Assembly (NCBI RefSeq): GCF_964213995.1
Contig: NC_135825.1
Location: forward strand, 11,966,001 to 12,030,000
DNA: 64,000 nt
Direction of reading: 5' to 3'
DNA from: Mustelus asterias
Taxonomy: Eukaryota
Part shown: positions 37,201 to 64,000 of the stretch, piece after piece
Layout of the letters: each line of letters opens with the position of its first letter
Position numbering within the stretch: the first letter of the stretch is position 1
Program-made: the position numbers and the translations under genes
The notes under the pieces: model-generated
Seen by the model: the letters and a program-made list of their open reading frames with translations, nothing else
The model's database searches: none
What the model was told of the DNA's origin: nothing

Positions 37201-40200
37201 AACATGCACTAGCTAAAGCCATACAAACATCGGGAAAAATGTGGACAGAGGTATTGCCCGCTATACTAATGAGATTAAGAGCTACCACAAACCGGACAAC
37301 CGGATTAACCTCTCATGAGCTAATGACAGGACGGGCGATGCAATTACCCGAAAGCATCGGAACAGGTGGGACCAATGTAGGTCCATTAAAGATAAAATCA
37401 GGAGATATGTTTTAGAACTGAGCACCCAACTAAAAGGGATGCGCAAATTGGTAAAGGGCAATCAGGAAATAAAAGACGCAGAGAGAGAGCTTGAAATGCT
37501 CCCTGACGTCCCAACAGCGGGAAGTCGAGTCCTAGTAAAAACATTACCTGACAAACCAGGGTTTGCACCAAAATGGAATGGGCCATATGAAGTTATAATT
37601 AGTGGAGACACCTGTGCCAGTATAGACATAAGAGGGAAAGGGGTCTGGAAACACTGGACACAACTAAAATTACACAAGGGAACAAATAAGTAATTAAATT
37701 GATGAACTAACGAAAATGCTTTCCTCAACACAGGCAAAGATTGCAAGCAAGAACGACTGGCGGGCGCGGGGTGATAGATAATATAACTTGTAAAGATTAT
37801 ATGAATTATAGTGTGAAGTTTGATGTTTGATCGTTGTGAATATGTATGTAATCGTGTATGTAACTGTACTACTTTGCGTTGTCGCGACTGTAAATTTGAC
37901 TGGATTGGTGGATAACTTGTTTTACAAAGCTCACATACATTTACACGGGAATCAAAGTGTATGTTACCCGCTAGCACAATCGGTCGAAGCCCTAATTGTA
38001 GCCACCCCTGGGTGGACCCCTCATGACTTATACACTGTAGATACATCAGATACACCCACTAAGGGACAAATTGGCAAATATAAAAGAGTTATACAGGGGA
38101 GATGTGTGGGACTTGTAAACCGCACAGATCCAACAGGTGGGAGGAAAAGCTTGTTCAGGTACTGCAAGCTATCCGCTTTGTTTTACGGGGCTGGGATGGG
38201 GATGTGCCGATGCCTTGGTCCCTAAGAATGATTCCTGCGTACAGACCCAGTGTGTCCATCAACATTGTCGGGTTAATAAGGGACTACTTGCACTTGTGAT
38301 GAACAGAAATGTCTGAATATAACCGCGGGAAGACAGCTTATTTGTGGACAATGCAATGGAACTCACGTAAGCTCAGACAAATGGACATACCCATTTGATA
38401 CTTACTAGGTGGTGGGATCAAATGGGGAGTCAAGTAAACCGAACAACTGGCAATATGAGCAAACTCATAATCAAGACACTAAATGTTACCGGGCTAAGAA
38501 GGGATATGTGTTGCTCTTCAATGGTACTTACATGACAGAAACACCAAACCTCCCAAACCGTTTTGCAGCAGGAACAATCGGACCACTGACTGTTCCATGC
38601 CCCCAGAAGGGGCATATTCGGAGGAGAATAGTAACTCGGGCTATCAGCAAAGAATGCTGCGCTGACTGGGAAGTTCTGGGCACAATGGGATCCTCACTGG
38701 GATATGGGTTCCTTGGAGCCTTATTTCTCGGCGTGGGGGGGCGTGGGGGTGGGGGGGTGGGGGGAGGGGCAGCAGAAGTGATTTGTGCAAAGAGTAGGAA
38801 TCATATTGTTTGTGGACTAACAGTCCTGGAGAACAACACTTCAAAAGCACTGGAGGCTGTTAACCACGAAATGGCTGAACTGAGATTATATGCACAACAG
38901 ACACGATATGCAGTGGACTATCAGTTAGCACAACAAGGGGGAGTGTGTACAATTATAGGCAATAAATGCAGAACCCATGTCACAGACGAGTCCTATAACA
39001 ATACACAGGTCATCAATAGCATCAGAGAACAACTTGATAGCTTCAGACAGGGACCCAAGAAAGGAAGTAACTGGCTGGAATGGGTAGTGGGGGGGTCCTG
39101 GGAATCTTACTTATTACATGGATTGGTCATGCTCATTTCAATTGTAATTGCCTGTTGTCTAATTGTTGGATGCCTAAATGTCTGTTGCAAGGTGATGGTG
39201 ACTAGAATTGTGCCAGGAGCCAGTGTATACATCGAAGAAGAAACCCCGATGAAGATCCCCGAAGACATCAGAAGAAGCGAAGAAGGAAAGAAGAAGAACA
39301 AAGAATTATACATATAAAAATTGTTGGTCTCAGGATTAGTGAAACTCATAATCCGACCAAAAGTGGGGACTGAAGTGGGAAAAATATACAGATGGGTACA
39401 CATAAGATGGCTGCCTGGCACACAAACAGTCACCTGGGAAAGAGACATTAAACAGGCACTGACTTTCAGTACAGACAGCCACCTGAGATTAAAACACAAA
39501 GAACAGACACCAATTCAAAGTTCAACATGCAGGAATCAAATCCTACAGGAAGCCAGCCAGGGCTTGAGGCACTCTTTAGGATAAGGACAATAGGTTGGAT
39601 AACGAGATTAGCTACAGGTGGGATCGGGAATACATAACTGCAGGAAAACTAATTACTGTAAATTGCTGTATGAACAGACTGAAACTAAAACCATTGATGG
39701 TCACTGACGTAGGAAATGTATCCATTCATAGAACAATGCAATGTTACCATGCTTATGTCCGTGTCTGTCTGTATTTGTCTATAACGATGTGTTAACGATC
39801 GATCACCTACTTGATTACAACGATGTGATAATGGCGAGATGTCCGGTCCATCTATTGTGTAAAGGGTATAAAGATGGACCGCTCCTATTGTCTCATTGAG
39901 AGAAGGTTTGCTGCTTGTTAGTGCCCTTTCTCCACGAAGCTTCGTGAAAATAAAACTGTATTCTTGAAACCTTCAAGCCTGACTCAGTGGTACATTTCCC
40001 ACAACAGTCCTCATCTGAAGCCCAAAATAAAACAGCCTGAGAACCACCCGTGCTGATCTGATAGATACAATCACCAAAATATAACCCAGAAATACACATT
40101 ACCACCACTCTCGTGAAAGACAACAACCTGTAACTACTGATATTAAACCTTTCACACAATCAGGCGAGAAATAAGCAGTGAGGTTCCAATGCTCCTTGGT

Positions 40201-43200
40201 ATCTTTCCCAGTCACTTCTTCAGCCTCCCCCATTGCCTCTGTCTTCTGCCCTTGCTCAGTAACCCGAGCAGCCACAGTTAGATTCCACTAATTGCACTCA
40301 CTGAGCGATTAATAGACTGAAATTGGCAACTCGTCTCTCACTGGGGGGATTTGATCACACACGGATTGACACATTTAAAGTTTCCTTGGAGATTTTTATG
40401 ATCATTTGGAACATTTGGAATACTTGTCCAATTCTGGTCACCACACAACCAGAAGGACGTGGAGGCTTTGGAGAGAGTGCAGAAAAGGTTTACCAGGAGT
40501 TGCCTGGTATGGAGGGTATTAACTATGAGGAGAGTTTGAATGAGCTGAGATTGTTCTCCCTGGAAAGACGGAGGCTGAGGGGCGACCTGATAGAAGTTTA
40601 TAAAATTATGAGAGGTATCGATGGGGTGAACAGCTGGAAGCTTTTTCCCAGGGCAGAAATGACAATTACAAGGGGGCACAAGTTCAAGATAATGGGGGAA
40701 AGGTTCAGTGGAGAAGTGCGGGGGAACTTTTTTACACGGAGGGTGGTGGGGGCCTGGAACGCACTCACAAGTGAGGTGGTTGAGGCAGTTACATTAGCCA
40801 CATTTAAGACTTATCTTGACAGACATATGAACAAACAGGGAATACAGGGATAAAAACGGTTGGTCTAGATAGATAAATGTGATCGGTGCAGCATGGAGGG
40901 CTGAAGGGCCTGTTCCTGTGCTGTACTGTTCTTTGTTCTTTGCTCTTTGATCCCTTTAAGGGGCTTTCACCATTTTGGATTATTTAATTGTGAAATTTGC
41001 CAATTTGTTAACTTTTAATCTGTCAGCTTCACCCTGCGTTTTCAGTGGTTTATTTGAAAGAAGCACAAACTGACGCATGTTGGGAGTTTGACTGGCTTCC
41101 CAACATATTGTCAATTTCTGTGTATTTAACCCCCTCTGTGCTCCCCCACCCACCCCCACAGCCCCACCATTCAGCGCTAAACCAAGAAGGTACAATTACT
41201 GCCAACTGGCTGCTCACTTCACTTTGTTAATGTCTGACTATTGGATTGATCCGGACTGTAAAAATCTGACAGTGTGATATTTAATACATTTCAGAGACAG
41301 GAAAATATTCTGAGCATCGCGGGTAATGTCTTTCACAATATCCTATAGTTAAAGGAATTGTTTGTCTGATTATGTTTGAAGTTCTTGGGCAGAATGTTGG
41401 ACAGGCCACGAATTGAGTTTGTGTCACAAGAGTCGGATTTCCAGATCTCTGCCCTCTGGCTGCCAGACTCTGCATTGCTGCAGAGCCTCGGGATATCGGA
41501 GCTGTCAATGTTTCCTTGCGGATAAAACATGGATCAGACATTTCAGTAATAAAGAAAGTCATTGAGAATAATGTACCGTAAGATATTTGCAGCTCCACAG
41601 TAAACTTTGGATCTGAGAAATATTTAACAATTCCACAGCGATAGAATCCTGCATCTTCTGTGTGAAGATCCTCCATCGTAACAGCAAATATTCCTTGTGA
41701 CTTGTTATCTGTGATCGACATTTTCCCTCGCCGTCCATCTGGATCATCCGTTCTCACTAAATATGAGCACCGTTCAGTCCAACCGTGACACCAATATTTC
41801 ACATATTCTTTGTATGTTCCATCATAATAGCAATTTATTGTAATCGATCTTCCCACAATTCCTGTGACATTCGTTTCTGCCCACAACGCACCTGAAACTG
41901 AGGAGACAACATTTCAGCAATTGACCAAGTAAATAACTGCTTAATGCAGAGAGAAACATTTTAATAAGATTTACCACTGTGTACAGAGGAAACTCTCCAA
42001 TATCTGTATTCATCATTCTCTTTCTAGTTTGTGATTAATGAAAACATGAATATAGAGCCGTGCTGTCAGTGCCAAAGTACTTCATTGACAATGATTTCTT
42101 GTTAATGTACAGTGGCCATTGTTATTGTGTCACCTTGTCACTCAAGCTTTGCACTGGCGCCTCTGAATGGGTGGATTGCAGGGTCAGGTCCCACTCCAGA
42201 GACTGGAGTATAAAACCTACACTAACATTCCAGTGTAATACTGAGGGACAAGATGGCTCAGATTTTCCTCCCCCCAGTCATGTTCACAGAGCTCGGTGAT
42301 GTCTTTCAGGTGAAAGGTTCATCTGACACCCAAGTCTGGACATTCCCTGTCATGGAGAAAATCCCGGGAATGGCTGGAATTTCGAAGCCCGGAGAGTGGG
42401 AGTGGGACTGCAATCGGGCTGGCATTCACACATACGCGATTCGTTCAACTCTGGATTGCCTTAAATTCATCATCTGCCTCGACTGAAGTGGGATTTTGGA
42501 TGAACAGAAGTGTGTGTGGAATCTGGATTGTGCAGATTAGAATATTGAAGAAAAGGTCTGAACTTGGTGGATTCTTATAGACAGTAAGAAGTTTAACAAC
42601 ACCAGGTTAAAGTCCAACAGGTTTATTTGGTAGCAAAAGCCACACAAGCTTTCGAGGCTCTGAGCCCCTTCTTCAGGTGAGTGGGAATTCTGTTCACAAA
42701 CAGAACTTATAAGACACAGACTCAATTTACATGAATAATGGTTGGAATGCGAATACTTACAACTAATCCAGTCTTTAAGAAACAAAACAATGGGAGCTGT
42801 TTGTGAACAGAATTCCCACTCACCTGAAGAAGGGGCTCAGAGCCTCGAAAGCTTGTGTGGCTTTTGCTACCAAATAAACCTGTTGGACTTTAACCTGGTG
42901 TTGTTAAACTTCTTACTGTGTTTACCCCAGTCCAACGCCGGCATCTCCACATCATTCTTATAGACAGCCAGGGTCCAACTTCTGGAGAGGGAAGTTACTC
43001 TTTGGAAGGGGAAAGTTTCTCTTTGACACAAACTCTGGTGAGCCGGTCAGGGCCGGAGTGATTATTCAGCTGTTTAAATTATTTTACTTATTAACCATGG
43101 CGCTGGGGCACAGAAACAGGCCTTGTGTCCACCTCACCTCCGGGCTGAGCAGCATGTGGATTTGTTCCCGGGTCGCCCGTCCCGACTCACTTTTTAATGC

Positions 43201-46200
43201 CTTTCCCGACTCAGTGAACACGGCCCAGGGACGGCAGTCTGGGCCTCAGTCTGCCCCACAGGTCAGTGCACCAGGAATGACACATTACTCAGGAAAAAGT
43301 GCAATGAAGATTCCCTGGAACATAGAACATAGAACATTACAGCGCAGAACAGGCCCTTCGGCCCACGATGTTGCACCGACCAGTTAAAAAAAAAAACTGT
43401 GACCCTCCAACCTAAACCAATTTCTTTTCGTCCATGAACCTATCTACGGATCTCTTAAACGCCCCCAAACTAGGCGCATTTACTACTGATGCTGGCAGGG
43501 CATTCCAATCCCTCACCACCCTCTGGGTAAAGAACCTACCCCTGACATCGGTTCCATAACTACCCCCCCTCAATTTAAAGCCATGCCCCCTCGTGCTGGA
43601 TTTCTCCATCAGAGGAAAAAGGCTATCACTATCCACCCTATCTAAACCTCTAATCATCTTATATGTTTCAATAAGATCCCCTCTTAGCCACCGCCTTTCC
43701 AGCGAAAACAATCCCAAATCCCTCAGCCTCTCCTCATAGGATCTCCCCTCCATACCAGGCAACATCCTGGTAAACCTCCTCTGCACCCTCTCCAAAGCCT
43801 CCACATCCTTCCTGTAATGTGGGGACCAGAACTGCACACAGTACTCCAAGTGCGGCCGCACCAGAGTTGTGTACAGTTGCAACATAACGCTACGACTCCT
43901 AAATTCAATCCCCCTACCAATAAACGCCAAGACACCATATGCCTTCTTAACAACCTTATCTACTTGATTCCCAACTTTCAGGGATCTATGCACACATACA
44001 CCTAGATCCCTCTGCTCCTCCACACTATTCAAAGTCCTCCCGTTAGCCCTATACTCAACACATCTGTTATTCCTACCAAAGTGAATTACCTCACACTTCT
44101 CCGCATTAAACTCCATCCGCCACCTCTCGGCCCAACTTTGCAACCTGTCTAAGTCTTCCTGCAAACTACGACACCCTTCCTCACTGTCTACCACACCACC
44201 GACTTTGGTGTCATCAGCAAATTTGCTAATCCACCCAACTATACCCTCATCCAGATCATTAATAAATATTACAAACAGCAGTGGCCCCAAAACAGATCCC
44301 TGAGGTACACCACTTGTAACCGCACTCCATGATGAATATTTACTATCAACCACCACCCTCTGTTTCCTATCCGCTAGCCAATTCCTGATCCAATTTCCTA
44401 GATCACCCCCAATCCCATACATCTGCATTTTCTGCAGAAGCCTACCATGGTGAACCTTATCAAACGCCTTACTAAAATCCATATATACCACGTCCACTGC
44501 CTTGCCCCCATCCACCTCCTTGGTCACTTTCTCAAAAAACTCAATAAGGTTAGTAAGGCACGACCTTACTAACCTTATTGGTTAAGGACTGGTTCCTGGG
44601 ATAAGGGGGTGGGATGGGAACAGGTTGAGTCCACAAGGTGCATATTTCCTGTCAGTTGGAAGAATCAGAGGTGATTGAATTGAAATGTGTACAATTCTGA
44701 AGGGGCTTGACAGGGTACATTTTGAGCATATATGTACCACCCTACCAGGGCTGGGCATTCTGCATCACAGGATCACAGTCTCGGAATAAAGTGACAGACA
44801 CGAAGGTTGAGATGAGGAGATTTTTATTCACCCAAGGTGTTGTGAATCCTTGGAATTCTCTGCACCAGAGATCTTTAGATGTTCGGTCTTGAAGGATATT
44901 AAACACAGAGATTTATACAATTTTTTGGTACCAACATAATCGAGGGGTATGGGGATAGTGCAGGAAATAAGAATTGAAGTTGGAGATCAGTGAGCATGTT
45001 GCTGAATGATGCAGCAGGCTCAAAGGGACAAAGGCCAACTCCTGCTCCTATTTCTAATGTTGATCTTGTGGAGGAGAGGTGGCAGTATGAATCAAAAATT
45101 CCATTGCAGACAGCATAATAGCATCAGTTTGGTATGGGGCTGGTGTGAAAATTTAGATTTACTTTGTTAAATGTTAAAGAATGAAAAGAAAATGATTCCA
45201 TCTTGGATGGACAAAGTAGACAAAGCATGTACAAGTGATTGGGTGGCACGTTGACACAGTGCTGAACACAGCTACGTCACTGCGCCAGGGACCCGGGTTC
45301 AATTTCAGCCTCGGCTGACTGACTGTGTGGAGTTTGCACCTTCACCCCATATCTGTGTGGGTTTCCTCTGGGTACTCCAGTTTCCTCCCACACTGCAAAG
45401 ATGTTCAGGTTACGTTGATTGGCCATGCTAAATTGCCCCTTATTGTCCCAAGATGTATAGGTTAAGAAAATTAATGAGGTAAATATGTGGCGTTACAGGC
45501 ATGGGTAACACGCTCTTTGGTGCAGACTCAATGGGCCGAATGGCCTCCTTGTGCACTGTAGGGATTCTCTGAAACAGAGTCACTGACAGAGATTGATAAA
45601 ACTTTCATCAGATGTAATTTAAATAATAGAAACAATTGCAAACTTGAGGAATATTTTCCTGGAGCCTTTGTTGCCTCTGCAGTCTTCAGAGTCAATTCAA
45701 TGAGCAATAATCTGCAATGGGTCACAGGCATCTCTCAACATTAGGGAGAGATAATTGGTTACATTTAGTGTAGGGGGCACCACTCCACAGGAATGGGGAA
45801 AGATGAGGAGGCAGATTTCTATAAACTACCACAGCCGCTCTGAGGATTGAACTCCTGCCATTGGAATCATTCCGAATTGCACTCCAAACAACTGAGCCAA
45901 TCAAACCCTCCAGTCTCCAGGATATATTGAGCATGAAACTACATTAACAAGTTAACTTTTACTGGACTGAAATGTGTTGCTTCTGCATTTTAATTGTATT
46001 AATCATATCGCTTTTTAACAAAAATAAATAGGTTAATTTATATTCACAATCAATAATGCCGTTTACTATTTGCTGGGTAAATATTTCTGTGGTACAATAC
46101 TATCAACAAAATAGCTACAAATATCACACGAATGTCATTAATTTATTTTTGCTGAGTTTTTGAAGCTTTACATGTCTCCAAGTATTTAAATATCTCTGCG

Positions 46201-46305
46201 GGATAAACCATGCACGAGACTTAATCTAACACTCATCATCTCGGGATCCAGTTTTGTCCCTTACTCACCAGGCAGAGAAAAGATGAAAAGAATCAGAATC
46301 CACAT
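7201..46305 (-). CDS. Receptor gene A (spliced, 16 exons): CD300/CMRF35/pIgR-like type-I receptor, leader + 6x(V + C2-like) + stalk + TM + short tail, about 1360 aa
   Basis: Exons joined by GT-AG introns in compatible phases; V exons have CD300/pIgR-type motifs (GRSITINC, KYWC, ITDNK, DAGxYxCGI); C2-like exons have YTWY and YYCTASN; neutral TM. Confidence 0.8.
7394..7482 (-). CDS. Gene A transmembrane exon, LIYIVLGVLGAILVVFAVSLLLYRRRIDK
   Basis: Acceptor ctctgtgtcacag, donor G|gtgagt; hydrophobic helix then RRR; phase 2 matches the stalk exon. Confidence 0.88.
7528..8497 (-). mobile_element. Decayed CR1-clade LINE 3' fragment
   Basis: Frameshifted RT and 3' remnants (RKQRMIVDG, RGELIE, RVVEAETL); boundaries approximate. 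Confidence 0.7.
9946..10024 (-). CDS. Gene A stalk exon, (V)GPENSCEVLTVSSMHSSIPNSKPAE
   Basis: Acceptor tttccttctttcag, donor AG|gtacg; phase 1 in, phase 2 out; Ser/Thr/Pro-rich. Confidence 0.8.
11205..11970 (+). mobile_element. Old LF-SINE-like element interrupted by a younger HE1-type SINE
   Basis: Core gctgacactcctgtgcagtactgaggaagtgctgcactgttggaggtgc and tail aaattggctgc...acaacagtgac recognised from memory; boundaries approximate. Confidence 0.45.
11380..11711 (+). mobile_element. tRNA-derived SINE (HE1/V-SINE type)
   Basis: A box TGGCACAGTGG, B box GGTTCAAATC, core tgtgtggagtttgcacattctccc, TTCTATG-type tail. Confidence 0.85.
12386..12709 (-). CDS. Gene A C2-like exon 6 (membrane-proximal, divergent 3' end)
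   Basis: 324 nt; cag acceptor, G|gtaagt donor; EPVSVPE...YYCTASN...NCSYVTQINNV. Confidence 0.9.
13920..14228 (-). CDS. Gene A V exon 6
   Basis: 309 nt; ttttcag acceptor, G|gtacat donor; APSALWAK...DAGWYSCG. Confidence 0.88.
14897..15220 (-). CDS. Gene A C2-like exon 5
   Basis: 324 nt, open, phase 1-1. Confidence 0.88.
16497..16805 (-). CDS. Gene A V exon 5
   Basis: 309 nt, open, phase 1-1. Confidence 0.88.
17475..17798 (-). CDS. Gene A C2-like exon 4
   Basis: 324 nt, open, phase 1-1. Confidence 0.88.
19081..19389 (-). CDS. Gene A V exon 4
   Basis: 309 nt, open, phase 1-1. Confidence 0.88.
19889..23080 (+). mobile_element. 5'-truncated CR1-clade LINE, present in one array unit only
   Basis: RT motifs KSPGPDG, NYRPVSLTS, GVPQGSVLGP, FADD; TGTTCTA-type tail; other units are empty here (cattgaccagaac). 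Confidence 0.92.
20794..21814 (-). mobile_element. Second CR1-clade LINE fragment nested antisense in the first
   Basis: (AGAACAA)n tail at 20794; minus-strand RT C-terminus; host reading resumes at caaaggcaaatcg. Confidence 0.9.
23248..23571 (-). CDS. Gene A C2-like exon 3
   Basis: 324 nt, open, donor G|gtaact. Confidence 0.88.
24243..24340 (+). mobile_element. Short 3' SINE fragment, unit-specific
   Basis: HE1-type tail ggccgaatggcctccttctgcactgtaggg plus A-run; absent from sister units. Confidence 0.75.
24928..25236 (-). CDS. Gene A V exon 3
   Basis: 309 nt, open, phase 1-1. Confidence 0.88.
25886..26209 (-). CDS. Gene A C2-like exon 2
   Basis: 324 nt, open, phase 1-1. Confidence 0.88.
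26554..26889 (-). mobile_element. HE1-type SINE, unit-specific
   Basis: A/B boxes and core on the minus strand; absent from sister units. Confidence 0.85.
27836..28144 (-). CDS. Gene A V exon 2
   Basis: 309 nt, open; W>C change near the N-terminus (ALCAK). Confidence 0.88.
29257..29580 (-). CDS. Gene A C2-like exon 1
   Basis: 324 nt; acceptor tttctttcccacag, donor G|gtaaat. Confidence 0.9.
30218..30585 (+). mobile_element. DeuSINE (SacSINE1-like) element
   Basis: tRNA-like head (GGTTCGAATCC) and Deu-like core ggaaatctaccatcctttcctggtctggcctacatgtg, recognised from memory. Confidence 0.6.
31829..31847 (+). promoter_or_regulatory. ERV primer-binding site, tRNA-Ser-like
   Basis: TGGCACAGTCGGCATGGAT versus the expected Ser PBS TGGCG(T/C)AGTCGGCAGGAT, 2 nt after the LTR. 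Confidence 0.7.
32477..33837 (+). pseudogene. gag: ERV gag (one frameshift near 33250)
   Basis: PPPY-like motif LPPY; two knuckles CYNCGQRGHFARDC and CSHCNKYGHTEAAC. Confidence 0.85.
35462..35506 (-). ncRNA. Minimal hammerhead ribozyme motif (mirror copy)
   Basis: Reverse complement of the motif at 36272-36317. Confidence 0.6.
36272..36317 (+). ncRNA. Minimal type-I hammerhead ribozyme motif
   Basis: cac-CTGAAGA-a-GGGGC ttgca GCTCC-GAAA-GCT-T-gtg: core boxes, stem II, palindromic helix III, short helix I. Confidence 0.65.
37842..39317 (+). pseudogene. env: ERV env (frameshifted SU, open TM subunit)
   Basis: Signal-like MYVIVYVTVLLCVVA; basic site RRRIVTR; ISD-like QQTRYAVDYQLAQQGGVC-X6-C; TM helix. 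Confidence 0.88.
40411..40941 (+). mobile_element. CR1 3' fragment shared by both arms
   Basis: LFSLERRRLRGDLIEVYK; mirror at about 60381-60912. Confidence 0.85.
41577..41897 (-). CDS. Gene A exon 2, N-terminal V domain (V1)
   Basis: 321 nt; acceptor gtctcctcag; VSGALWAE...KYWCHGWTERC...DAGFYRCGI; keeps the extra C-C' cysteine pair typical of CD300/pIgR. Confidence 0.92.
42585..42953. mobile_element. Short Penelope-like fold-back insertion, left arm only
   Basis: 14-bp TSD ATTCTTATAGACAG at 42571-42584 and 42954-42967; inverted 3' ends; empty site near 56574-56587. Confidence 0.88.
42815..42860 (+). ncRNA. Minimal hammerhead motif (mirror copy at 42640-42685, minus)
   Basis: cac-CTGAAGA-a-GGGGCT cag AGCCTC-GAAA-GCT-T-gtg. 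Confidence 0.62.
43316..44585 (-). mobile_element. 5'-truncated CR1 LINE, left arm only
   Basis: Open 371-aa RT ORF at 43412-44527; GAACATA-type tail; empty site near 55868. Confidence 0.92.
45241..45570 (+). mobile_element. Older HE1-type SINE shared by both arms
   Basis: A/B boxes and core; mirror at about 54883-55212. Confidence 0.8.
46269..46305 (-). CDS. Gene A exon 1, leader MWILILFIFSLP
   Basis: Kozak-like acaATG; 37 nt; strong donor G|gtgagt; splices in frame to VSGALW. Confidence 0.88.
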
Positions 46306-48594
46306 TGTTATCTTGGCAATGTTTCGATCAGTATTTATCGTCTGTCACCCAGCTCTTTGTTGAGATGTTGAAAGGCGGATCCAATAAACTCTGATACGGA
46401 ATTGAAATAAGATTGAAGAAAGCAGCAAGCCAGGCCTCAGGAAATTCCAGCCTTCAGAAAGCTCCAGGACGGAGGTCCCAGCTGGCCATTGCTATCACTG
46501 GTTGTGCCAGCTCTAACGATCCCCTTTAGCTGCTGATCTCCTTGTTCCAGCAGGCACAGCTCTACATCTGCCTCTTTGGTGACCTGTGGACGGTTACTGT
46601 CCGGCTTTGATAGTGTCGCTTAGTGTGGTTGTTGATATCATGGGAGGTGTGATTCACCCTGACACTTCCTGCACTGTTGCTGAAAACAGAAACGCCCAGA
46701 ATTTGCTGAAAATACCACAGTGTGTAAACTGGCCAATGAACTGAGACAATGAAGAGATATCAAACTCATTACAAGTTATTGGCTGCTTTTTACGCCTCCT
46801 CCATTAGCTTTGAGAAAATGGTGGATCTTTCTTAAACCCGCCCTGACTTTGATGAAATTGTGACATTTACCAAATAAATACCAAATAAACAGGCCACAGA
46901 ATGTTCAGTCTCGTAACATCAGCCTCCCTGGCCCAGAATGTGAACAATTATAAACTCTGGAGTTTCACTCTCTCCTGGATTGAATAATTGACCTGGATTT
47001 TCCAATGAGAGGAACGGCGAAGGTTAACAAACATTCACTGTTATTATGGAGTAAATGAGGCGGTAAAGAGGGTGCGCATGTGCAATTAAATTCAGAAATG
47101 TACAAGTTGTGGCTCTAATTCCCCAGTTACCCCAGAGGCTGTGCTATGCTTGTACCTCACCGACAGAGGGAGCATGGTTTTCAAATCTAGCCGGTTCCTT
47201 GACTCCTGTTGGAGCTGCACTCATCCAGTGAAGTGGAGAATATTCCATCACACTCCTGACTTGTGCCTTGCAGATGGTGGACAGGACTTAGAGAGTCAGG
47301 AGGTGAGTTACTTGCTGAAGCATTCACAGCCTCGGACCCGCTTTTGTATAAATAGTATTTATATGGCTGATCCAGTTCAGTTTCTGGTCAACAGTAACTC
47401 CCAGGATGTTGATAGTGTGGGATGTAGCAATGATAATGCCACTGAATGACCGGGGAAGGTGCTTAGGTTATAACGATTTTGACATGGTGTAAGGTTCTCC
47501 AGACACGTCTGCGGTTCAACCCATTGTGAGCGAGAATGGAAAATTTGGCGTTCCAGCCCAAACTTCTTTCAGTGTCAGCGGCAGTGGTAAAACTCCAGCC
47601 GCGAAAGAGGACAGAAGATTTTGCCCATGGTTTATGTCTGAGAATTAGGTGGTGCTGATGTCACTTGGCATTCATCAGTACATATCTTAGTGCTGTCCAG
47701 ATCTTGCTCCATATATGGACACAGACTTTTCTAGTATCTGAAAATTGCTGAATGGTTCTGAACATTCTGCAACCACCAGTCGACATCTTCACATCTGGCC
47801 AGATGCTGAAGGGAAGGATTATGGGCAAGATTGAGGATCTGGGATGGAGCTTGACTCTTGTTCACTGAGTCAGCTCTGGAACAATGAGGTGAATTAATTC
47901 CTTCTATTCTGCCGTGTCTAGGTTTCTGATACACACTCACTGATGCCTCTCTCTGGGGTAACTTGTCCGCACCATGGTGTAGCTGCTATGATCCCTGGTC
48001 ATTCCTTCTTCACCCTGAATCATCTGGTGTTCAAGGAATGTAGCAACACCCGTGCTGTTTGCCTGTGACAAATTCTGTATCAATGCTGATCTTCTCGCTG
48101 CTGCAAACACAGCTCTGCATTTGGTATCTGACACCTATTGTACATTCACAGGGTTTCTATCTCACACCACCCTGAGGACAGCAACACATTTTTCTTGCAG
48201 TTTCAAACCATGAACATTGCAAGTTGCAGCAAACATAAACCCACATTTATTTCCAATGTCAATCTCTCTCTTTGCCTTTCTCATCAACCGTTAAAGAATT
48301 TGAGGAGTTAATGGAATATTGCTGTAAATTGGTGCTTATTTAGGATGGAGTCGTCACTCACAGAATTCTATACTCAATAAAAAATGATCAAACATTGGAA
48401 CCATTTGGAAAATTCAGAACTCTTGAGTACAATCTGTTACACGTGGGTAAGAACTTCACTCTGAGTAAATCTAAAGTTAGAACTCTCATTGACCACAGCC
48501 TTGGGTGGAGAAACACGTTCATTTTTTATTATTAACTCATTCGTGGAATCAACAACAACAGCAATAACTTGTTCTTTTTAAAGGGCCTTTCACT

Positions 48595-48905
48595 CATAGA
48601 ATTTTGCAGTGCAGATGGAGGCCATTCGGTCCATCGCGCCGACACAATGCCACCCAGATCCTATCCCCATAACTCCACATATTTACCCTGCTGATCCCCT
48701 GACACAATGGAGCAATTTAACATGGGCAATGAATCTAACCTTCACATCTTTGGATTGTGGGATGAAACCGGAGCGCCTGGAGGAAATTCACACAGACCAC
48801 GGGGAGGAAATTGTGCAAACTCCACACTGCCAGTCACCCAAGTTCGGAATTGAACCTGGGCACCTGGCACTGTGAGGCAGCAGTGCTAACCACTGTGCCA
48901 CCATA
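48595..48905 (-). mobile_element. HE1-type SINE shared by both arms
   Basis: Mirror at about 51301-51612. Confidence 0.8.
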
Positions 48906-53899: not shown

Positions 53900-53936
53900 A
53901 TGTGGATTCTGATTCTTTTCATCTTTTCTCTGCCTG
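53900..53936 (+). CDS. Paralog B exon 1, leader MWILILFIFSLP
   Basis: Same as the gene A leader; donor G|gtgagt. Confidence 0.85.
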
Positions 53937-54401
53937 GTGAGTAAGGGACAAAAATGGATCCCGAGATTGATGAGTGTTGGATTAAGTCTAGTGCATGGTT
54001 TATACCGCAGAGATATTTAAATACTTGGAGACATGCAAAGCTACAAAAACTCAGCAAAAATAAATTCATGAATTTGTATGATATTTGTAGCTATTTTGTT
54101 GATAGTATTGTACCACAGAAATATTTACCCAGCAAATAATAAACGGCATTATTGATTGTGAATATAAATTAACCTATTTATTTTTGTTAAAAAGCTACAT
54201 GATTAATCGAATTAAAATGCAGAATCAGCACATTTCAGTCCAGTAAAAGTTAACTTGTTAATGTAGTTTCATGCTCAATATATCCTGGAGACTGGAGGGT
54301 TTGATTGGCTCAGTTGTTTGGAGTGCAATTCGGAATGATTCCAATGGCAGGGGTTCAATCCTCAGAGCGGCTGCGGTAGTTTATGGAAATCTGCCTCCTC
54401 A

Positions 54402-54673
54402 TGATGTGGCTGTCCTGTCTGGAGACAATACACATCTCTTTAACCTGTGCTTAATGCTCCCCCCACCCACATTGTCTGTATCTTTAAGATCTTGTTGGCT
54501 GTAGGGATTCGCATTCTAATCAGTGTTCTGTAACATGATTTTGTGTCGCTGTGCACTGTTTGAGAGCGCATTTCCACTCCATCTGATGAAGGAGCAGCGC
54601 TCCGAAAGCGAATGGTATTTGCTACCAAATAAATCTGTTGGACTTTAACCTGGTGTTGTTAAAACTCTTACTG
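54402..54673 (+). mobile_element. Penelope-like 3' fragment, right arm only, with a hammerhead-like motif at 54579-54615
   Basis: TSD-like TCCTCA; ccat-CTGATGA-a-GGAGC a GCGCTCC-type stem-GAAA-gcga-atgg (helix III appears mutated). Confidence 0.8.
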
Positions 54674-56160
54674 TCCTCACCTTTCCCCATTCCTGCCCCC
54701 CACACTAAATGTAACCAATTATCTCTCCCTAATGTTGAGAGATGCCTGTGATCCATTGCAGATTATTGCTCATTGAATTGACTCTGAAGACTGCAGAGGC
54801 AACAAAGGCTCCAGGAAAATATTCCTCAAGTTTGCAATTGTTTCTATTATTTAAATTGCATCTCTGTCAGTGAGTCTGTTTCATAGAATCCCTACAGTGC
54901 ACAAGGAGGCCATTCGGCCCATTGAGTCTGCATCAAAGAGCGTGTTACCCATGCCCGTCACGCCACATATTTACCTCATTAATTTTCGTAACCTATACAT
55001 CTTGGGACAACAAGGCTCAATTTAGCATGGCCAATCAACCTAACCTGAACATCTTTGCAGTGTGGGAGGAAACTGGAGTACCCAGAGGAAACCCACACAT
55101 ATATGGGGAGAAGGTGCAAACTCCACACAGACAGTCAGCCGAGGCTGGAATTGAACCCGGGTCCTTGGCGCAGTGACGTAGCAGTGCTCATCACTGTGTC
55201 AATGTGCCGCCCAATCACTTGTACATGCTTCATCTGCTTTGTCCATCCAAGATGTAGTCTTTTTCTTCTCATTTTTTGACATTTAACAAAGTAAATCTAA
55301 ATTTTGACACCAGCCCCATACTAAACTGATGCTATTATGCTGTCTGCGATGGAATTTGTGATTCATACTGCCACCTCTCCTCCTCAAGATCAACATTAGA
55401 AATAGGAGCAGGAGTTGGCCATATGTCCCTTTGAGCCTGCTCCATCATTCAACAACATCCTAACTGATCTACAACCTCAATTCTTATTTCCTGCACCATC
55501 CCCATATCCCTCGATTATGTTGGTGCCAAAAAATTGTATAAATCTCTGTGTTTACTATCCTTCAAGACTGGACATCTGAAGATGTCTGGGGCAGAGAATG
55601 TCAAAAATGCGCAACACCTTGAGTGAATAGAAATCTCCTCATCTCATCCTTTGTGTCTCTCACTTTATTCCAAGAATGTGATCCTGTGATGCAGAATGCC
55701 CAGCCCTGGTAGGGTGGTACATATATGCTCAAAATGTATCCTGTCAAGCTCCTTCAGAATTGTACACATTTCAATTCAATCACCTCTGATTCTTCCAACT
55801 GACAGGAAATATGCACCTTGTGGACTCAACCTGTTCCCATCCCATCCCCTTATCCCAGGAACCAGTCTTGGGAATCTTCATTGCACTTTTTCCCTGAGTA
55901 ATGTGTCATTCCTGGTGCACTGACCTGTGGGGCAGACTGAGGCCCAGATTGCCGTCCCTGGGCCGTGTTCACTGAGTCGGGAAAGGCATTAAAAAATGAG
56001 TCGGGACGGGTGACCCGGGAACAAATCCACAGGCTGCTCAGCCCGGAGGTGAGCTGGACACAAGGCCTGTTTCTTTGCCCCAGCGCCATGGTTAATAAAT
56101 AAAATAATTTAAACAACTGAATAATCACTCCATCCCTGACCGCTTACCAGAGTTTGCCCC

Positions 56161-56557
56161 AAAAAGTAACTTTCCCCTCCCATAGAGTAACTTTCCTTTC
56201 CCAAAGAGTACCTTTCCCCTCCTAAAGAGTAACTTTCCCATCCCAAAGAGTAAATTTCCCCTCCTAAAGAGTAACTTTCCTTTCCCAAAGAGTAACGTTC
56301 CCCTCCTAAAGAGTAACTTTCCTTTCCCAAAGAGTAACTTTCCCCTCCCAAAGAGTAACTTTCCCCTCCTAAAGAGTAATTTTCCTTTCCCAAAGAGTAA
56401 TGTTCCCCTCCTAAAGAGTAACTTTCTTTTCCCAAAGAGTAACTTTCCCCTCCTAAAGAGTAACTTTGCTCCACAAAGAGTAACTTTCCTCTCCCAAAGA
56501 GTAACTTTCCTCTCCCAAAGAGTATCTTTCCCCTCCCAAAGAGTAACTTCCCTCTCC
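56161..56557. repeat. 21-bp minisatellite, 19 units (AAAGAGTAACTTTCCCCTCCC variants)
   Basis: Counted directly; only about 2 units at the mirror site 42981-43025. Confidence 0.95.
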
Positions 56558-56894
56558 AGAAGATGTACCCTGGCTGTCCATAAGAACCCACCAAGTCCAA
56601 AGATGTGCGGGTTAGGTTGATTGCCCAAGCTAAATTGCCCCTGAGTGTCCCAGGATGCGTAGATTAAAGGGTTTAGCGGGTAAATATGTAGGGATATGGG
56701 GATAGGGCCTGGGTGGGATTGTTGTCGGCGCAGACTCAGTGGGCCGAATGGCCTCTTTCTGTACTGTAGGGGTTCTATGGTTCTATGGTTCTAAGTTCAG
56801 ACCTTCTCTTAACTGTTCTAATCTGCACATTCCGGATTCCACACTCCTGTTCATCCAAAATCCCACTTCAGTCGAGGCAGATGTTGAATTTAAT

Positions 56895-57225
56895 CATCGA
56901 AACCCTACAGTGCAGAAGGAGGCCATTCGGCCCATCGAGTCTGCACCGAACACAATCCCACCCAGGCCCTACCCCCACATATTTACCTGCTAATCCCTCT
57001 AACCTACGCATCCCAGGACTCTAAGGGACAATTTTTAACCTGGCCAATCAACCTAACCCGCACATCTTTGGACTGTGGGAGGAAACCGGAGCACCCGGAG
57101 GAAACCCACGCAGACACGAGGAGAATGTGCAAACTCCACACAGACAGTGACCCGAGCCGGGAATCGAACCCGGGACCCTGGAGCTGTGAAGCAGCAGTGC
57201 TAACCACTGTGCTACCGTGCCGCCC
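56895..57225 (-). mobile_element. Young HE1-type SINE, right arm only
   Basis: TTAAT direct repeats; empty site near 42460. Confidence 0.88.
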
Positions 57226-57794
57226 TTAATGACAATCCGCCTCCACGAATCGCGTATTTGGAATGCCAGCCCGATTCCAGTCCCACTCCCACTCTTAGGA
57301 CTTGGAAATTCCGACCATTCCTGGGATTTTCTCCATGACAGGGAGCCTCCAGACCTGGGTGTTAGATGAACCTTTCACCTGAAAGACATCACCGAGCTCT
57401 GTGAACATGACTGGGGGCAGGAAAATCTGAGCCATCTTGTCCCTCAGTATTACACTGGAAGGTTAGTGTAGATTTTCTACTCCAGTCTCTGGAGTGGGAC
57501 CTGACCCTGCAATCCACCCATTCAGAGGCACCAGTGCAAAGCTTGAGTGACAAGGTGACACAATAACAATGGCCACTGTACATTAACAAGAAATCATTGT
57601 CAGTGAAGTACTTTGGCACTGACAGCACGGCTCTATATTCATGTTTTCATTCATCACAAACTAGAAAGAGAATGATGAATACAGATATTGGAGAGTTTCC
57701 TCTGTACACAGTGGTAAATCTTATGAAAATGTTTCTCTCTGCATTAAGCAGTTATTTACTTGGTCAATTGCTGAAATGTTGTCTCCTCAGTTTC

Positions 57795-59402
57795 TGAGTT
57801 TCAGTAAACAGAAGCTCAGAATCTGAAGCTCAGTAAACCGAAGGTCGATAAGTCCCCTGGGCCTGATGAAATATATCCTAGGATTCTTTGGGAGGCAAGG
57901 GATGAGATTGCAGAGCCTTTGTACTTGATCTTTGGGTCCTCACTGTCCACGGGGATGGTGCCAGAGGACTGGAGAGTGGCGAATGTTGTTCCTCTGTTTA
58001 AGAAAGGGAATAGAAATGACCCTGGTAATTATAGACCGGTTAGTCTTACTTCGTTGGTTGGTAAATTGATGGAAAAGGTCCTTAGGGATGGGATTTACGA
58101 CCATTTAGAAAGATGCGGATTAATCCGGGATAGTCAGCACGGATTCGTGAAGGGCAAGTCATGCCTCACAAATTTGATTGAATTTTTTGAGGTGGTAACT
58201 AAGTGTGTTGATGAAGGTAGGGCAGTTGATGTCATATACATGGATTTTAGTAAGGCGTTTGATAAGGTCCCCCATGGTCGGCTTATGATGAAAGTAAGGA
58301 GGTGTGGGATAGAGGGAAAGTTGGCCAATTGGATGGGTAACTGGCTATCTGATCTAAGACAGATGGTGGTGGTGGATGGAAAATTTTCGGACTGGAGGCA
58401 GGTTGCTAGCGGAGTGCCACAGGGATCAGTGCTTGGTCCTCTGCTCTTTGTGATTTTTATTAATGACTTAGAGGAGGGGGCTGAAGGGTGGATCAGTAAA
58501 TTTGCTGATGACACCAAGATTGGTGGAGTAGTGGATGAGGTGGAGGGCTGTTGTAGGCTGCAAAGAGACATAGATAGGATGCAAAGCTGGGCTGAAAAAT
58601 GGCAAATGGAGTTTAACCCTGATAAATGTGAGGTGATTCATTTTGGTAGGACTGATTTAAATGTGGATTACAGGGTCAAAGGTAGGGTTCTGAAGACTGT
58701 GGAGGAACAGAGAGATCTTGGGGTCCATATCCACAGATCTCTAAAGGTTGCCACTCAAGTGGATAGAGCTGTGAAGAAGGCCTATAGTGTGTTAGCTTTT
58801 ATTAACAGGGGGTTGGAGTTTAAGAGCCGTGGGGTTATGCTGCAACTGTACAGGACCTTGGTGAGACCACATTTGGAATATTGTGTGCAGTTCTGGTCAC
58901 CTCACTCTAAGAAGGATGTGGAAGCGCTGGAAAGGGTGCAGAGGAGATTTACCAGGATGCTGCTTGGTTTGGAGGGTAGGTCTTATGAGGAAAGGTTGAG
59001 GGAGCTAGGGCTGTTCTCTCTGGAGCGGAGGAGGCTGAGGGGAGACTTAATAGAGGTTTATAAAATGATGAAGGGTATAGATAGAGTGAACGTTCAAAGA
59101 CTATTTCCTCGGGTGGATGGAGCTATTACAAGGGGGCATAACTATAGGGTTCATGGTGAGAGATATAGGAAGGATATCAGAGGTAGGTTCTTTACGCAGA
59201 GAGTGGTTGGGGTGTGGAATGGACTGCCTGCAGTGATAGTGGAGCCAGACACTTTAGGAACATTTAAGCGGTTATTGGATAGGCACATGGAGCACACCAG
59301 GATGATAGGGAGTGGGATAGCTTGATCTTGGTTTCAGATAAAGCTCGGCACAACATCGTGGGATGAAGGGCCTCTTCTGTGCTGTACTGTGCTATGTTCT
59401 AT
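57795..59402 (+). mobile_element. 5'-truncated CR1 LINE inserted 4 nt into paralog B exon 2
   Basis: Open 468-aa RT ORF at 57919-59325; GTTTC duplicated at 57790-57794 and 59403-59407; absent in gene A. Confidence 0.93.
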
Positions 59403-59409
59403 GTTTCAG

Positions 59410-59724
59410 GTGCATTGTGGGCAGAAATGAAAGTCACAAGAATTGTGGGAAGATCGTTCTCAATAAATTGCAGTTATGATGGAAAATACAAACAAAACGT
59501 GAAATATTGGTGTCACGGTTGGACTGAACGGTGCTCACATTTAGTGAGAACGGATGATCCAAATGGATGGCGAGGGAGAATGTCGATCACAGATAACAAG
59601 GCACAAGGAATATTTGTTGTTACGATGAAGGATCTTCGCTCAGGAGATGCAGGATTGTATCGCTGTGGAATTGATACACCTGGCCTTGATCCAAAGTTTT
59701 TGTTGGAGCTGCAAATATCTTACA
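59410..59724 (+). CDS. Paralog B exon 2, V domain (predicted new acceptor)
   Basis: GALWAEMKVTRIVGRSFSINC...KYWCHGWTERC...DAGLYRCGI; open frame; weak donor A|gtatat. Confidence 0.75.
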
Positions 59725-61316
59725 GTATATTATTCTCAATGATTTTCTTTATTACTGAAATGTCTGATCCATGTTTTACCCACAAGGAAACATTGACAGC
59801 TCCGATATCCCGAGGCTCTGCAGCAATGCAGAGTCTGGCAGCCAGAGGGCAGAGATCTGGAAATCCGACTCTTGTGACACAAACTCAATTCGTGGCCTGT
59901 CCAACATTCTGACCAAGAACTTCAAACATAATCAGACAAACAATTCCTTTAACTGCAGGATATTGTGAAAGACATTACCCACGATGCTCCGAACATTTTC
60001 CTGTCTCTGAACTGTATTAAATATCACACTGTCAGATTGTTACAGTCCGGATCAATCCAATAGTCAGACATTAACAAAGTGAAGTGAGCAGCCAGTTGAT
60101 ACTTATTGGTTGATACTTGTTGGTTTAGCGCTGAATGGTGGGGCTGTGGGGGTGGATGGGGGAGCACAGAGGGGGTTAAATACACAGAAATTGACAATAT
60201 GTTGGGAAGCCAGTCAAACTCCCAACATCCGGATGTATCCGCAATGTGTCAGTTTGTGCTTCTTTCAAATAAACCACTGAAAATTCAGGGTGAAGCTGAC
60301 AGATTAAAAGTTAACAAATTGGCAAATTTCACAATTAAATAATCCAAAATGGTGAAAGCCCCTTAAAGGGATCAAAGAGCAAAGAACAAAGAACAGTACA
60401 GCACAGGAACAGGCCCTTCGGCCCTCCATGCTGCACCGATCACATTTATCTATCTAGACCAACCGTTTTTATCCCTGTATTCCCTGTTTGTTCATATGTC
60501 TGTCAAGATAAGTCTTAAATGTGGCTAATGTAACTGCCTCAACCACCTCACCTGTGAGTGCGTTCCAGGCCACCACCACCCTCCGTGTAAAAAAGCTCCC
60601 CTGCACTTCTCCACTGAACCTTTCCCCCATTATCTTGAACTTGTGCCCCCTTGTAATTGTCATTTCTGCCCTGGGAAAAAGCTTCCAGCTGTTCAAACCA
60701 TCGATATCTCTCATAATTTTATAAACTTCTATCAGGTCGCCCCTCAGCCTCCGTCTTTCCATGGAGAACAATCTCAGCTCATTCAAACTCTCCGCATAGT
60801 TAATACCCTCCATACCAGGCAACATCCTGGTAAACCTTTTCTGCAATCTCTCCAAAGCCTCCATGTCCTTCTGGTTGTGTGGTGACCAGAATTGGACAAG
60901 TATTCCAAATGTTCCAAATGATCATAAAAATCTCCAAGGAAACTTTAAATGTGTCAATCAGTGTGTGATCAAATCCCCCCAGTGAGAGACGGGTTATCAA
61001 TCTCAGTCTATTAATCGCTCAGTGAGTGCAATTAGTGGAATCTAACTGCGGCTGCTCGGGTTACTGAGCAAGGGCAGAAGACAGAGGCAATGGGGGAGGC
61101 TGAAGAAGTGACTGGGAAAGATGCCAAGAAGCACTGGAACCTCACTGCTTATTTCTAGCCTGATTGTGTGAAAGGTTTAATATCAGTATTTACAGGGTGT
61201 TGACTTTCACAAGAGTGGTGGTAATGTGTATTTCTGGGTTATATTTTGGTGATTGTACCTATCAGATCAGCATGGGTGGTTCTCAGGCTGTTTTATTTTG
61301 GGCTTCAGATGAGGAC

Positions 61317-64000
61317 TGTTGTGGGAAATGTACCACTGAGTCAGGCTTGAAGGTTTCAAGAATACAGTTTTATTTTCACGAAGCTTCGTGGAGAAAGGGC
61401 ACTAACAAGCAGCAAACCTTCTCTCAATGAGACAATAGGAGCAGTCCATCTTTATACCCTTTACACAATAGATGGACCGGACATCTAGCCATTATCACAT
61501 CATTGTAATCAAGTAGGTGATCGATCGTTAACACATCGTTATAGACAAATACAGACAGACACAGACATAAGCATGTTAACATCGCATTGTTCTATGAATG
61601 GATACATTTCCTACGTCAGTGACCATCAATGGTTTTAGTTTCGGTCTGTTCATACAGCAATTTACAGTAATTGGTTTTCCTGCAGTTATGTATTCCCGAT
61701 CCCACCCATAGCTAATCTCGTTATCCAACCCTATTGTGCTTATCCTAAAGAGTGCCTCAAGCCCTGGCTGGCTTCCTGCAGGATTTGATTCCTGCACGTT
61801 TAACTTTGAATCGCTGTCTGTCCTTTATGTTTTAATCTCAGGTGGCTGTCTGTACTGAAAGTCAGTGCCTGTTTAATGTCTCTTTCCCAGGTGACTGTTT
61901 GTGTGCCAGGCAGCCATCTTATGTGTACCCATCTGTATATTTTTCCCACTTCAGTCCCCACTTTTGGTCAGATTATGAGTTTCACTAATCCTTAGACCAG
62001 CAATTTTTATATGTATAATTCTTTGTTCTTCTTCTTTCCTTCTTCGTTTCTTCTGATGTCTTCGGGGATCTTCATCGGGGTTTCTTCTTCGATGTATACA
62101 CTGGCTCCTGGCACAATTCTAGTCACCATCACCTTGCAACAGACTTTTAGGCATCCAACAATTAGACAACAGGCAATTACAATTGAAATGAGCATGACCA
62201 ATCCATGTAATAAGTAAGATTCCCAGGACCCCCCCACTACCCATTCCAGCCAGTTACTTCCTTTCTTGGGTCCCTGTCTGAAGCTATCAAGTTGTTCTCT
62301 GATGCTATTGATGACCTGTGTAATGTTATAGGACTCGTCTGTGACATGAGTTCTGCATTTATTGCCTATAATTGTACACACTCCCCCTTGTTGTGCTAAC
62401 TGATAGTCCACTGCATAGCGTGTCTGTTGTGCATATAATCTCAGTTCAGCCATTTCGTGGTTAACAGCCTCCAGTGCTTTTGAAGTGTTGTTCTCCAGGA
62501 CTGTTAGTCCACAAACAATATGATTCCTACTCTTTGCACAAATCACTTCTGCTGCCCCTCCCCCCACCCCCCCCCACCCCCACGCCCCCCCCACGCCGAG
62601 AAATAAGGCTCCAAGGAACCCATATCCCAGTGAGGATCCCATTGTGCCCAGAACTTCCCAGTCAGCGCAGCATTCTTTGCTGATAGCCCGAGTTACTATT
62701 CTCCTCCGAATATGCCCCTTCTGGGGGCATGGAACAGTCAGTGGTCCGATTGTTCCTGCTGCAAAACGGTTTGGGAGGTTTGGTGTTTCTGTCATGTAAG
62801 TACCATTGAAGAGCAACACATATCCCTTCTTAGCCCCGGTAACATTTAGTGTCTTGATTATGAGTTTGCTCATATTGCCGGTTGTTCGGTTTACTTGACT
62901 CCCCATTTGATCCCACCACCTAGTAAGTATCAAATGGGTATGTCCATTTGTCTGAGCTTACGTGAGTTCCATTGCATTGTCCACAAATAAGCTGTCTTCC
63001 CGCGGTTATATTCAGACATTTCTGTTCATCACAAGTGCAAGTAGTCCCTTATTAACCCGACAATGTTGATGGACACACTGGGTCTGTACGCAGGAATCAT
63101 TCTTAGGGACCAAGGCATCGGCACATCCCCATCCCAGCCCCGTAAAACAAAGCGGATAGCTTGCAGTACCTGAACAAGCTTTTCCTCCCACCTGTTGGAT
63201 CTGTGCGGTTTACAAGTCCCACACATCTCCCCTGTATACCTCTTTTATATTTGCCAATTTGTCCCTTAGTGGGTGTATCTGATGTATCTACAGTATATAA
63301 GTCATGAGGGGTCCACCCAGGGGTGGCTACAATTAGGGCTTCGACCGATTGTGCTAGCGGGTAACATACACTTTGATTCCCGTGTAAATGTATGTGAGCT
63401 TTGTAAAACAAGTTATCCACCAATCCAGTCAAATTTACAGTCGCGACAACGCAAAGTACTACAGTTACATACACGATTACATACATATTCACAACGATCA
63501 AACATCAAACCTCACACTATAATTCATATAATCTTTACAAGTTATATTATCTATCACCCCGCGCCCGCCAGTCGTTCTTGCTTGCAATCTTTGCCTGTGT
63601 TGAGGAAAGCATTTTCGTTAGTCCATCAATTTAATTACTTATTTGTTCCCTTGTGTAATTTTAGTTGTGTCCAGTGTTTCCAGACCCCTTTCCCTCTTAT
63701 GTCTATACTGGCACAGGTGTCTCCACTAATTATAACTTCATATGGCCCATTCCATTTTGGTGCAAACCCTGGTTTGTCAGGTAATGTTTTTACTAGGACT
63801 CGACTTCCCGCTGTTGGGACGTCAGGGAGCATTTCAAGCTCTCTCTCTGCGTCTTTTATTTCCTGATTGCCCTTTACCAATTTGCGCATCCCTTTTAGTT
63901 GGGTGCTCAGTTCCAAAACATATCTCCTGATTTTATCTTTAATGGACCTACATTGGTCCCACCTGTTCCGATGCTTTCAGGTAATTGTATCGCCCGTCCT
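61317..64000 (-). mobile_element. Duplicated ERV 3' part (LTR 61317-61953, env, end of integrase)
   Basis: Same host junction (acaaca|gtcctcatc) as at 40006, so copied with the arm. Confidence 0.95.

Follow-up and report, generated by a model that had tools for sequence, protein, structure and literature searches.

An inverted duplication of an MDIR-family receptor gene in Mustelus asterias with a near-identical proviral tract and a divergent membrane-distal V exon

Do two immune-receptor genes that lie head to head in an inverted duplication stay alike, as a matched pair of opposite signalling would, or do they come apart, and in which of their parts? The question is raised by a 64,000-nucleotide stretch of Mustelus asterias DNA (NC_135825.1, forward-strand positions 11,966,001 to 12,030,000; the whole stretch is referred to as the window), in which two divergent genes, A on the left and B on the right, occupy the arms of a large palindrome. 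Judged by their sequences, both are MDIR-family (CD300/pIgR-like) receptors. MDIRs are cartilaginous-fish relatives of CD300, TREM, and pIgR; PMC3031540 describes them as multigenic activating and inhibitory receptors of that kinship. The history that we hold to be probable, although well short of assured, comprises duplication, drift, one copying event, and diversification of the membrane-distal V domain (V1). An inhibitory-type MDIR gene that most likely already held an intronic provirus was duplicated in inverted orientation around a 2.1-kb spacer, after which the arms drifted to about 4–5% divergence and gained private transposon insertions in intron 1. A later, long copying event would have brought the provirus interior back to 0.8% divergence, its end falling within the 3' long terminal repeat (LTR) or just short of it, and the V1 exon gained amino-acid changes in both copies faster than nearby neutral DNA.

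The inverted duplication itself is real. Self-BLAST of the window defined inverted blocks that run from 37328 and 64000 inward to 49038 and 51173, with a left arm of 11,711 bp, a right arm of 12,828 bp, a spacer of 2,134 bp, and leader ATGs at 46305 (−) and 53900 (+), 7,595 bp apart. These values bear out an earlier sequence-only reading of the locus, which had described arms and spacer of this size, divergent ATGs 7.6 kb apart, and private insertions in each arm. The left start at 37328 merely mirrors the window edge; the arms are open-ended, and it marks no biological outer limit. Realignment of six homologous BLAST-defined blocks, with arm-private insertions excluded, gave 352 mismatches in 9,963 aligned columns (3.5%; 96.5% identity) and 20 small indels. 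The arrangement may have arisen directly as an inverted duplication, and a tandem duplication followed by inversion is also possible. Near the inner ends of the arms (some 15 bp away), a short cluster of differences between 49020–49027 and its mirror near 51185 resembles a micro-inversion.

Divergence is distributed unevenly along the arms. The sequence-only reading had judged env almost identical, the LTR less so, and intron 1 visibly more diverged, and had named uniform divergence as the outcome that would contradict it. The variance-to-mean ratio in 300-column windows was 6.28, whereas none of 5000 permutations exceeded 2.16; with CpG sites left out, the regional chi-square was still 148 (11 degrees of freedom). 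The env frames differ at 0.66–0.75% of positions and the 3' LTR at 2.8%; intron 1, at 5.3% (139/2634), does exceed both, but the most diverged segment is the V1 exon (38/315 sites, 12.1%), with about three times the divergence of its surroundings. With the V exon removed, binary segmentation placed one change-point at 39497 (log-likelihood ratio 35.8, beyond 300 of 300 permutations). Outward of it 17 of 2169 columns are mismatched (0.78%), inward of it 297 of 7478 (3.97%), and this provirus interior also differs from the LTR and intron 2 that adjoin it (67/2079; p = 6e-9). CpG decay was rejected as the cause of the step, given that 2 of 100 CpG-context sites are mismatched in the tract versus 14 of 62 in intron 2 and that the chi-square persists. 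Selection on env was likewise rejected, and protein constraint does not explain the identity of the tract: env is broken up in each arm and has an equivalent stop in both, and nonsynonymous changes make up 8 of the 12 codon changes scored.

The simplest cause of the tract would be one later copying event between the arms, by gene conversion or by break-induced re-copying; it would span at least 2.2 kb and have about one fifth the age of the background divergence. The patchy arm-to-arm conversion proposed previously is thus retained for a single tract, the provirus interior; elsewhere there is no second significant change-point, the next split having p = 0.053, above 0.05. Outside the tract and V1, the variance-to-mean ratio was nonetheless 4.16 (permutation maximum 2.25, p = 0.0003); this residual patchiness is real, and two sequences cannot assign its cause. 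Divergence by increasing distance from the insertions was 4.7, 4.9, 3.0, 3.9, and 2.4%, which is not monotonic; the difference between the 4.7–4.9% within 600 bp and the 2.4–3.9% further off is partly an alignment-edge effect. According to PMC3924837, insertions can end conversion, and the confinement of the large insertions here to intron 1, the most diverged non-coding part, fits such a role.

Mutation-rate variation after one duplication, with neither exchange nor selection, could draw on the overdispersion outside the tract without a significant change-point and on the somewhat greater divergence near insertions. It can hardly be credited, given that the five-fold step remains when CpG sites are removed and that the divergence peak is both confined to an exon and nonsynonymous. 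As a separate observation, the leader and proximal upstream region (46270–47400) differ by 1.4–2.8% between arms versus 4.2% further upstream, which could reflect constraint on a promoter or another short tract of conversion; the change-point there is not significant.

Near-identity of a proviral interior could also be produced by assembly. Multi-copy interiors of endogenous retroviruses (ERVs) are prone to cross-mapping, and two haplotypes or mis-polished repeats joined head to head, with the provirus identity coming from collapsed or cross-mapped reads, would yield a similar picture; of the four small indels in the proviral part, two are next to homopolymers of 7 bases. Such an artefact is very improbable in view of a window with zero N, a single-copy spacer with a cleanly inserted central SINE (short interspersed element), a gene A in which 16 of 16 exons are open with GT/AG ends, and a tract that retains 17 dispersed mismatches. 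The open exons throughout gene A suggest good base quality, and the 6-bp direct repeat on the flanks of the central SINE argues against a mis-join inside that element; a mis-join of the assembly is unlikely.

The provirus also orders the events. It is bounded by a 4-bp target-site duplication, its gag, pol, and env are fragmented, and it matches zinc-knuckle, protease, reverse transcriptase (RT), integrase, and class I-type env sequences; epsilon-like elements are a major fish ERV class (PMC4977317). Its 3' junction is common to both arms, and the 5'–3' LTR distance is 6.1–7.2%, compared with 3.0% between the two 3' LTRs. The shared junction and the larger 5'–3' distance indicate that integration most likely preceded the duplication, and the LTR distance of about 7% gives a rough ceiling for neutral arm divergence. 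This argument would fail if the LTRs had exchanged sequence with each other, or if the provirus had been transferred from one arm to the other once the duplicate existed. An absolute date was dropped: at 7e-10 per generation, the rate given for the epaulette shark in PMC10587355, 4% would correspond to about 29 million generations, which was judged implausible.

The LTRs had also been offered as a sign of conversion, since at several sites the right 3' LTR agrees with the left 5' LTR and not with its own mirror. The match exists, at 11 of the 18 sites that separate the two 3' LTRs, but its interpretation was rejected. Across about 607 gap-free columns of the three LTRs, private sites number 30 in the 5' LTR, 11 in the left 3' LTR, and 4 in the right 3' LTR, and 3 sites differ in all. 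The asymmetry of 11 versus 4 has p = 0.12, six of the 11 sites are in CpG context, and the 11 are interleaved with the 5'-private sites, with a longest run of 2 (p = 0.96). The left 5' LTR behaves as an outgroup and there is no tract; the right 3' LTR resembles it because the left 3' LTR mutated at those sites.

In the V1 exon the pattern is the opposite of homogenisation. Nonsynonymous differences amount to 32.5 over 239 sites (proportion pN 0.136) and synonymous differences to 4.5 over 73 (pS 0.062), corresponding to rates dN of 0.15 and dS of 0.064. The synonymous proportion equals the intron 1 background (p = 0.79); the nonsynonymous rate exceeds both intron 1 (p = 1e-5) and the 7.2% LTR ceiling (p = 0.007), and the 300 bp of intron on either side of the exon differ by 1.3% and 3.7%. 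Polarised with seven shark V1 domains as outgroups, the 27 residue changes divide into 12 derived in A, 12 derived in B, and 3 unclear, with the densest cluster at codons 88–92, where strand F ends and the FG loop follows. Controls within gene A run the other way: pairs of internal V exons have pN 0.046 below pS 0.065, and C2 pairs have pN 0.049 below pS 0.118. Family-wide, mean identity is 78% for V1, 91% for internal V, and 89% for C2 domains. A nonsynonymous excess over neutral DNA that is split between the arms and reversed in the controls points to diversifying selection on the membrane-distal domain as the most likely cause, perhaps acting on it as a ligand- or pathogen-contact domain.

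Alternatively, V1 and parts of intron 1 might be a mosaic, imported by conversion from other paralogues of the cluster, in which case selection would not be needed. Seven M. asterias family proteins are listed, and the cluster would hold more copies; the M. asterias protein P0001 is closer to V1 of A and of B (83 and 85 of 103 residues) than A is to B (77/104). Moreover, V69 and K73 of B co-occur in P0006-type V domains, and the changes are clustered at codons 88–92. A distant donor should, however, raise pS, which lies at the intron background, and the array V exons in the window were rejected as donors, the 49 sites at which A and B agree against the array spanning the whole exon. On balance we consider import doubtful, and prefer selection following duplication.

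Several observations weigh against the history that we favour. Three mismatches at 39318–39370 blur the end of the tract, which could lie nearer 39.3 kb, and the case for conversion draws on two sequences only. For V1, dN does not differ significantly from the exon's own dS (Fisher p = 0.09), and enrichment of changes in loops resembling complementarity-determining regions is weak (9/22 versus 18/82, p = 0.066). Codons 88–92 and 97–98 may each reflect single complex events, without which the comparison with intron 1 gives p = 0.015. The excess over the highest neutral rate holds for A (p = 0.030) and is not significant for B (p = 0.098). Finally, B-derived changes fall at G10, I16, T17, and E73, positions invariant in the seven outgroups and five array domains, and so look like decay.

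The nature of the genes bears on what the pair might do. V1 is a V-set domain with phmmer matches to pIgR and CD300; an AlphaFold model of V1 of A (mean pLDDT 88.6) has CD300lf as its best Foldseek match (TM-score 0.87, 42% identity). The first homologue search gave 45 matches, all to elasmobranch proteins and with M. asterias LOC144511684/5 (81% identical) closest, and a profile search reached skate MDIR3 (V1 50%, 52/103; C2 70%, 76/108). With V1 of B as query, a homologue search restricted to near lengths gave no match. In a V-domain tree, A and B lie in an open fork of a seven-row clade with Mustelus V1 domains (97/93), with neither placed as the sister of the other. Gene A is ordered as leader, V1, C2-(V-C2)x5, stalk, transmembrane (TM) segment, and first cytoplasmic exon, so that V and MDIR-type C2 exons alternate, V-C2 six times. 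The ectodomain of true pIgR, the transcytosis receptor, consists of V domains only, and the alternation rules out that identity for gene A. Its TM and first tail exon are nearly identical to those of P0001, whose annotated tail has two tyrosine motifs; the TM of gene A is uncharged, and the putative tyrosine-motif exons of gene A, and the 3' exons of gene B, lie past the window ends, gene B being represented within the window by leader and V1.

The 12-domain ectodomain of gene A arose by tandem V-C2 duplication, its units being 88–94% identical. A Sawyer-type run test for conversion on this array yielded 3 of 30 pairs below a Bonferroni-corrected 0.05, two of them short C2-exon runs, and none of the 10 V-block pairs was significant. 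In each of the five internal V domains a four-residue stretch is missing, and with it one of the two cysteines of the CD300-type pair, so that the cysteine number is odd; V2 has an additional N-terminal cysteine. M. asterias relatives have other repeat architectures (P0001 repeats a four-domain unit), which suggests quick turnover of domain number. Two opposed fragments of long interspersed elements (LINEs) at 19893–23080 split the array between V4 and C3. A Gypsy-type LTR retrotransposon (2251–6857, +) lies antisense to gene A between its TM and first cytoplasmic exon; it is young, with LTRs 98.8% identical and gag-pol in two long overlapping frames. Intronic sequence at 9657–9817 matches the last annotated exon of P0001 (+, 95%) and of P0003 (−), hinting at inverted paralogues in the M. 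asterias cluster or at a repeat caught by gene prediction.

The sequence-only reading had raised the possibility of paired receptors, and an activating/inhibitory pair kept alike by conversion, as in SIGLEC11/SIGLEC16, is one model for head-to-head genes 7.6 kb apart; those of the primate pair are about 9 kb apart (PMC5701461). Both classes occur in the family. Among 87 elasmobranch and holocephalan proteins (6 of 93 fetched matches having been excluded as teleost, mammalian, fused, or divergent), 35 are inhibitory-type, 10 have an arginine-containing TM and a short tail, 7 are other, and for 35 no TM was called. The model is not supported by the domains themselves. Paired receptors need highly similar ligand-binding domains, and here the V1 domains are 74% identical and both closest to inhibitory-type members; V1 of B is 83% identical to the best inhibitory-type protein and 64% to the best activating-type one. 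The window itself yielded no activating-type TM exon, and in SIGLEC11/SIGLEC16 conversion homogenises the V-set exon that is the most diverged part here. Pairing of this kind is accordingly an improbable explanation. By its TM, gene A reads as inhibitory-type, and indirect evidence leans towards the same signalling class for gene B.

Whether gene B is still a working gene is a separate matter. A B-only 1,613-bp LINE in gene sense abuts the V1 acceptor, whose upstream tract is replaced by the LINE tail, and the V1 donor has A at −1, where all 16 gene A donors have G. The LINE at the acceptor, the weakened donor, and the changes at invariant positions together suggest that B may be decaying, and the chances that it is poorly spliced or decaying appear roughly even. 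The pair would then be either two same-class receptors with different tips or a receptor with a decaying spare, with a ligand-matched activating/inhibitory pair disfavoured as the working mode.

The non-SINE parts of the spacer have no second copy within the window. Its central SINE (49678–50014) is 96.4% identical to a SINE in B-only intron sequence (56892–57225), far above other SINE copies in the window, as for a young subfamily or a local copy. On the question of which spacer junction is ancestral, an nhmmer search found no third copy in the window, and tblastn with the window's young Gypsy pol as query returned nothing significant. An Rfam scan of 30000–64000 gave no matches. Sequence spanning the right junction may resemble an L2-type LINE. 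The large arm-private insertions, two on the left and four plus a 21-bp tandem expansion on the right, all lie in intron 1. The insertions at 42575–42960 and 54403–54680, presumably Penelope-like, are related to nested inverted pieces at 35362–36351, to which we would give the same label and which break the provirus pol. The features are collected in Table 1.

Table 1. Positions of the features in the window
Feature	Coordinates	Strand	Basis or remark
Left arm, 5' part of gene A	37328..49038	−	self-BLAST; open-ended
Right arm, 5' part of gene B	51173..64000	+	self-BLAST; continues past window
Single-copy spacer: decayed LTR-retrotransposon integrase remnant (−) and two SINE pieces	49039..51172		Pfam Integrase_H2C2, E=6e-07
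Low-divergence tract	37328..39496, mirror 61828–64000		17 mismatches in 2169 columns
ERV in intron 2 of gene A, antisense to gene	31220..40006	+	5' LTR 31220–31826; 3' LTR 39371–40006
Mirror of provirus 3' end in gene B, same integration junction	61317..64000	−	arm comparison
Gene A leader exon, ATG 46305	46269..46305	−	exon model
Gene A V1 exon, CD300/pIgR-type V domain, divergence peak between arms	41577..41891	−	sequence and model
Gene A ectodomain array C2-(V-C2)x5, 11 open exons	12386..29580	−	mirror expected past window
Gene A stalk exon	9946–10024	−	exon model
Gene A uncharged TM exon	7394–7482	−	exon model
Gene A first cytoplasmic exon	1094–1146	−	rest of tail past position 1
Gene B leader exon, peptide identical to that of A	53900..53936	+	exon model
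Gene B V1 exon, open frame, 77/104 residues identical to A, donor A at −1	59410..59724	+	exon model
A-only insertion, intron 1, 14-bp flanking direct repeat	42575..42960		self-BLAST
A-only LINE fragment, intron 1	43316..44584	−	arm comparison
B-only insertion, intron 1	54403..54680		self-BLAST
B-only 21-bp tandem expansion (19 copies) and two SINE insertions, intron 1	56158..57228		self-BLAST
B-only LINE, RT open reading frame of 505 aa, gene-sense, at V1 splice acceptor	57795..59407	+	arm comparison

A divergent immune tip domain is a familiar pattern in fast-evolving immune gene clusters, and the ingredients of this locus are each known from other gene families; its value is that of a well-controlled new case, with no new mechanism. 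Rapid amino-acid change is pinned to one exon against neutral clocks (introns and LTRs) and controls (internal V and C2 domains), the pair names the domain and loops worth assaying, and a long-tract exchange between inverted arms is relatively dated in a non-mammalian genome. A bolder picture, which we regard as rather a long shot, would see the MDIR cluster as fast-diversifying innate recognition: the arms would still exchange long tracts and might flip, the V-C2 array would be a conserved stalk that expands and contracts, only the tip V would be driven apart by a pathogen or viral ligand, and B would be an activating partner or a donor pseudogene. Were this true, the locus would offer ready ground for testing how paired receptors and decoys evolve in the oldest lineage of jawed vertebrates.

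One close known system is the MDIR family of the clearnose skate (MDIR3, with elasmobranch genes named 'pIgR-like' and 'CMRF35-like' at NCBI), which shares the modular V/C2 ectodomain and uncharged TM of gene A. Gene A differs in its 12 Ig domains and in internal V domains without the four-residue stretch that holds a cysteine of the CD300-type pair. In the literature searched, outside which most subscription journals fall, no genomic arrangement, arm exchange, or conversion was found for MDIR clusters, nor any work on this locus, and no MDIR ligands came up; bioRxiv 2022.04.21.489081 and PMC9321927 likewise gave nothing on the family. As at this locus, SIGLEC11/SIGLEC16, the closest arrangement known, are head-to-head Ig receptors less than 10 kb apart with fragmented converted regions; in that pair conversion extends over the V-set exon, preserving a similar ligand preference, and signalling is opposite (PMC5701461), whereas here V1 is the divergence peak and the homogenised tract is a dead provirus. 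Exon 5 of the red/green opsins resembles V1 in having an exon-confined peak of amino-acid change between less diverged introns, which in the opsins are held low by ongoing conversion (PMC3924837). The flanks here differ by 1–5%, which implies that conversion is rare, and positive selection by itself, with no shielding from conversion, may account for the V1 peak. Mammalian X/Y palindromes, finally, likewise have arms longer than 8 kb, a unique spacer, and genes in the arms. Large palindromes are defined, in PMC8327919, by arms of at least 8 kb and arm identity of at least 99%; the arms described here have that length at 96.5% identity, they carry kilobase-sized private insertions, and only the 2.2-kb tract reaches 99.2%.

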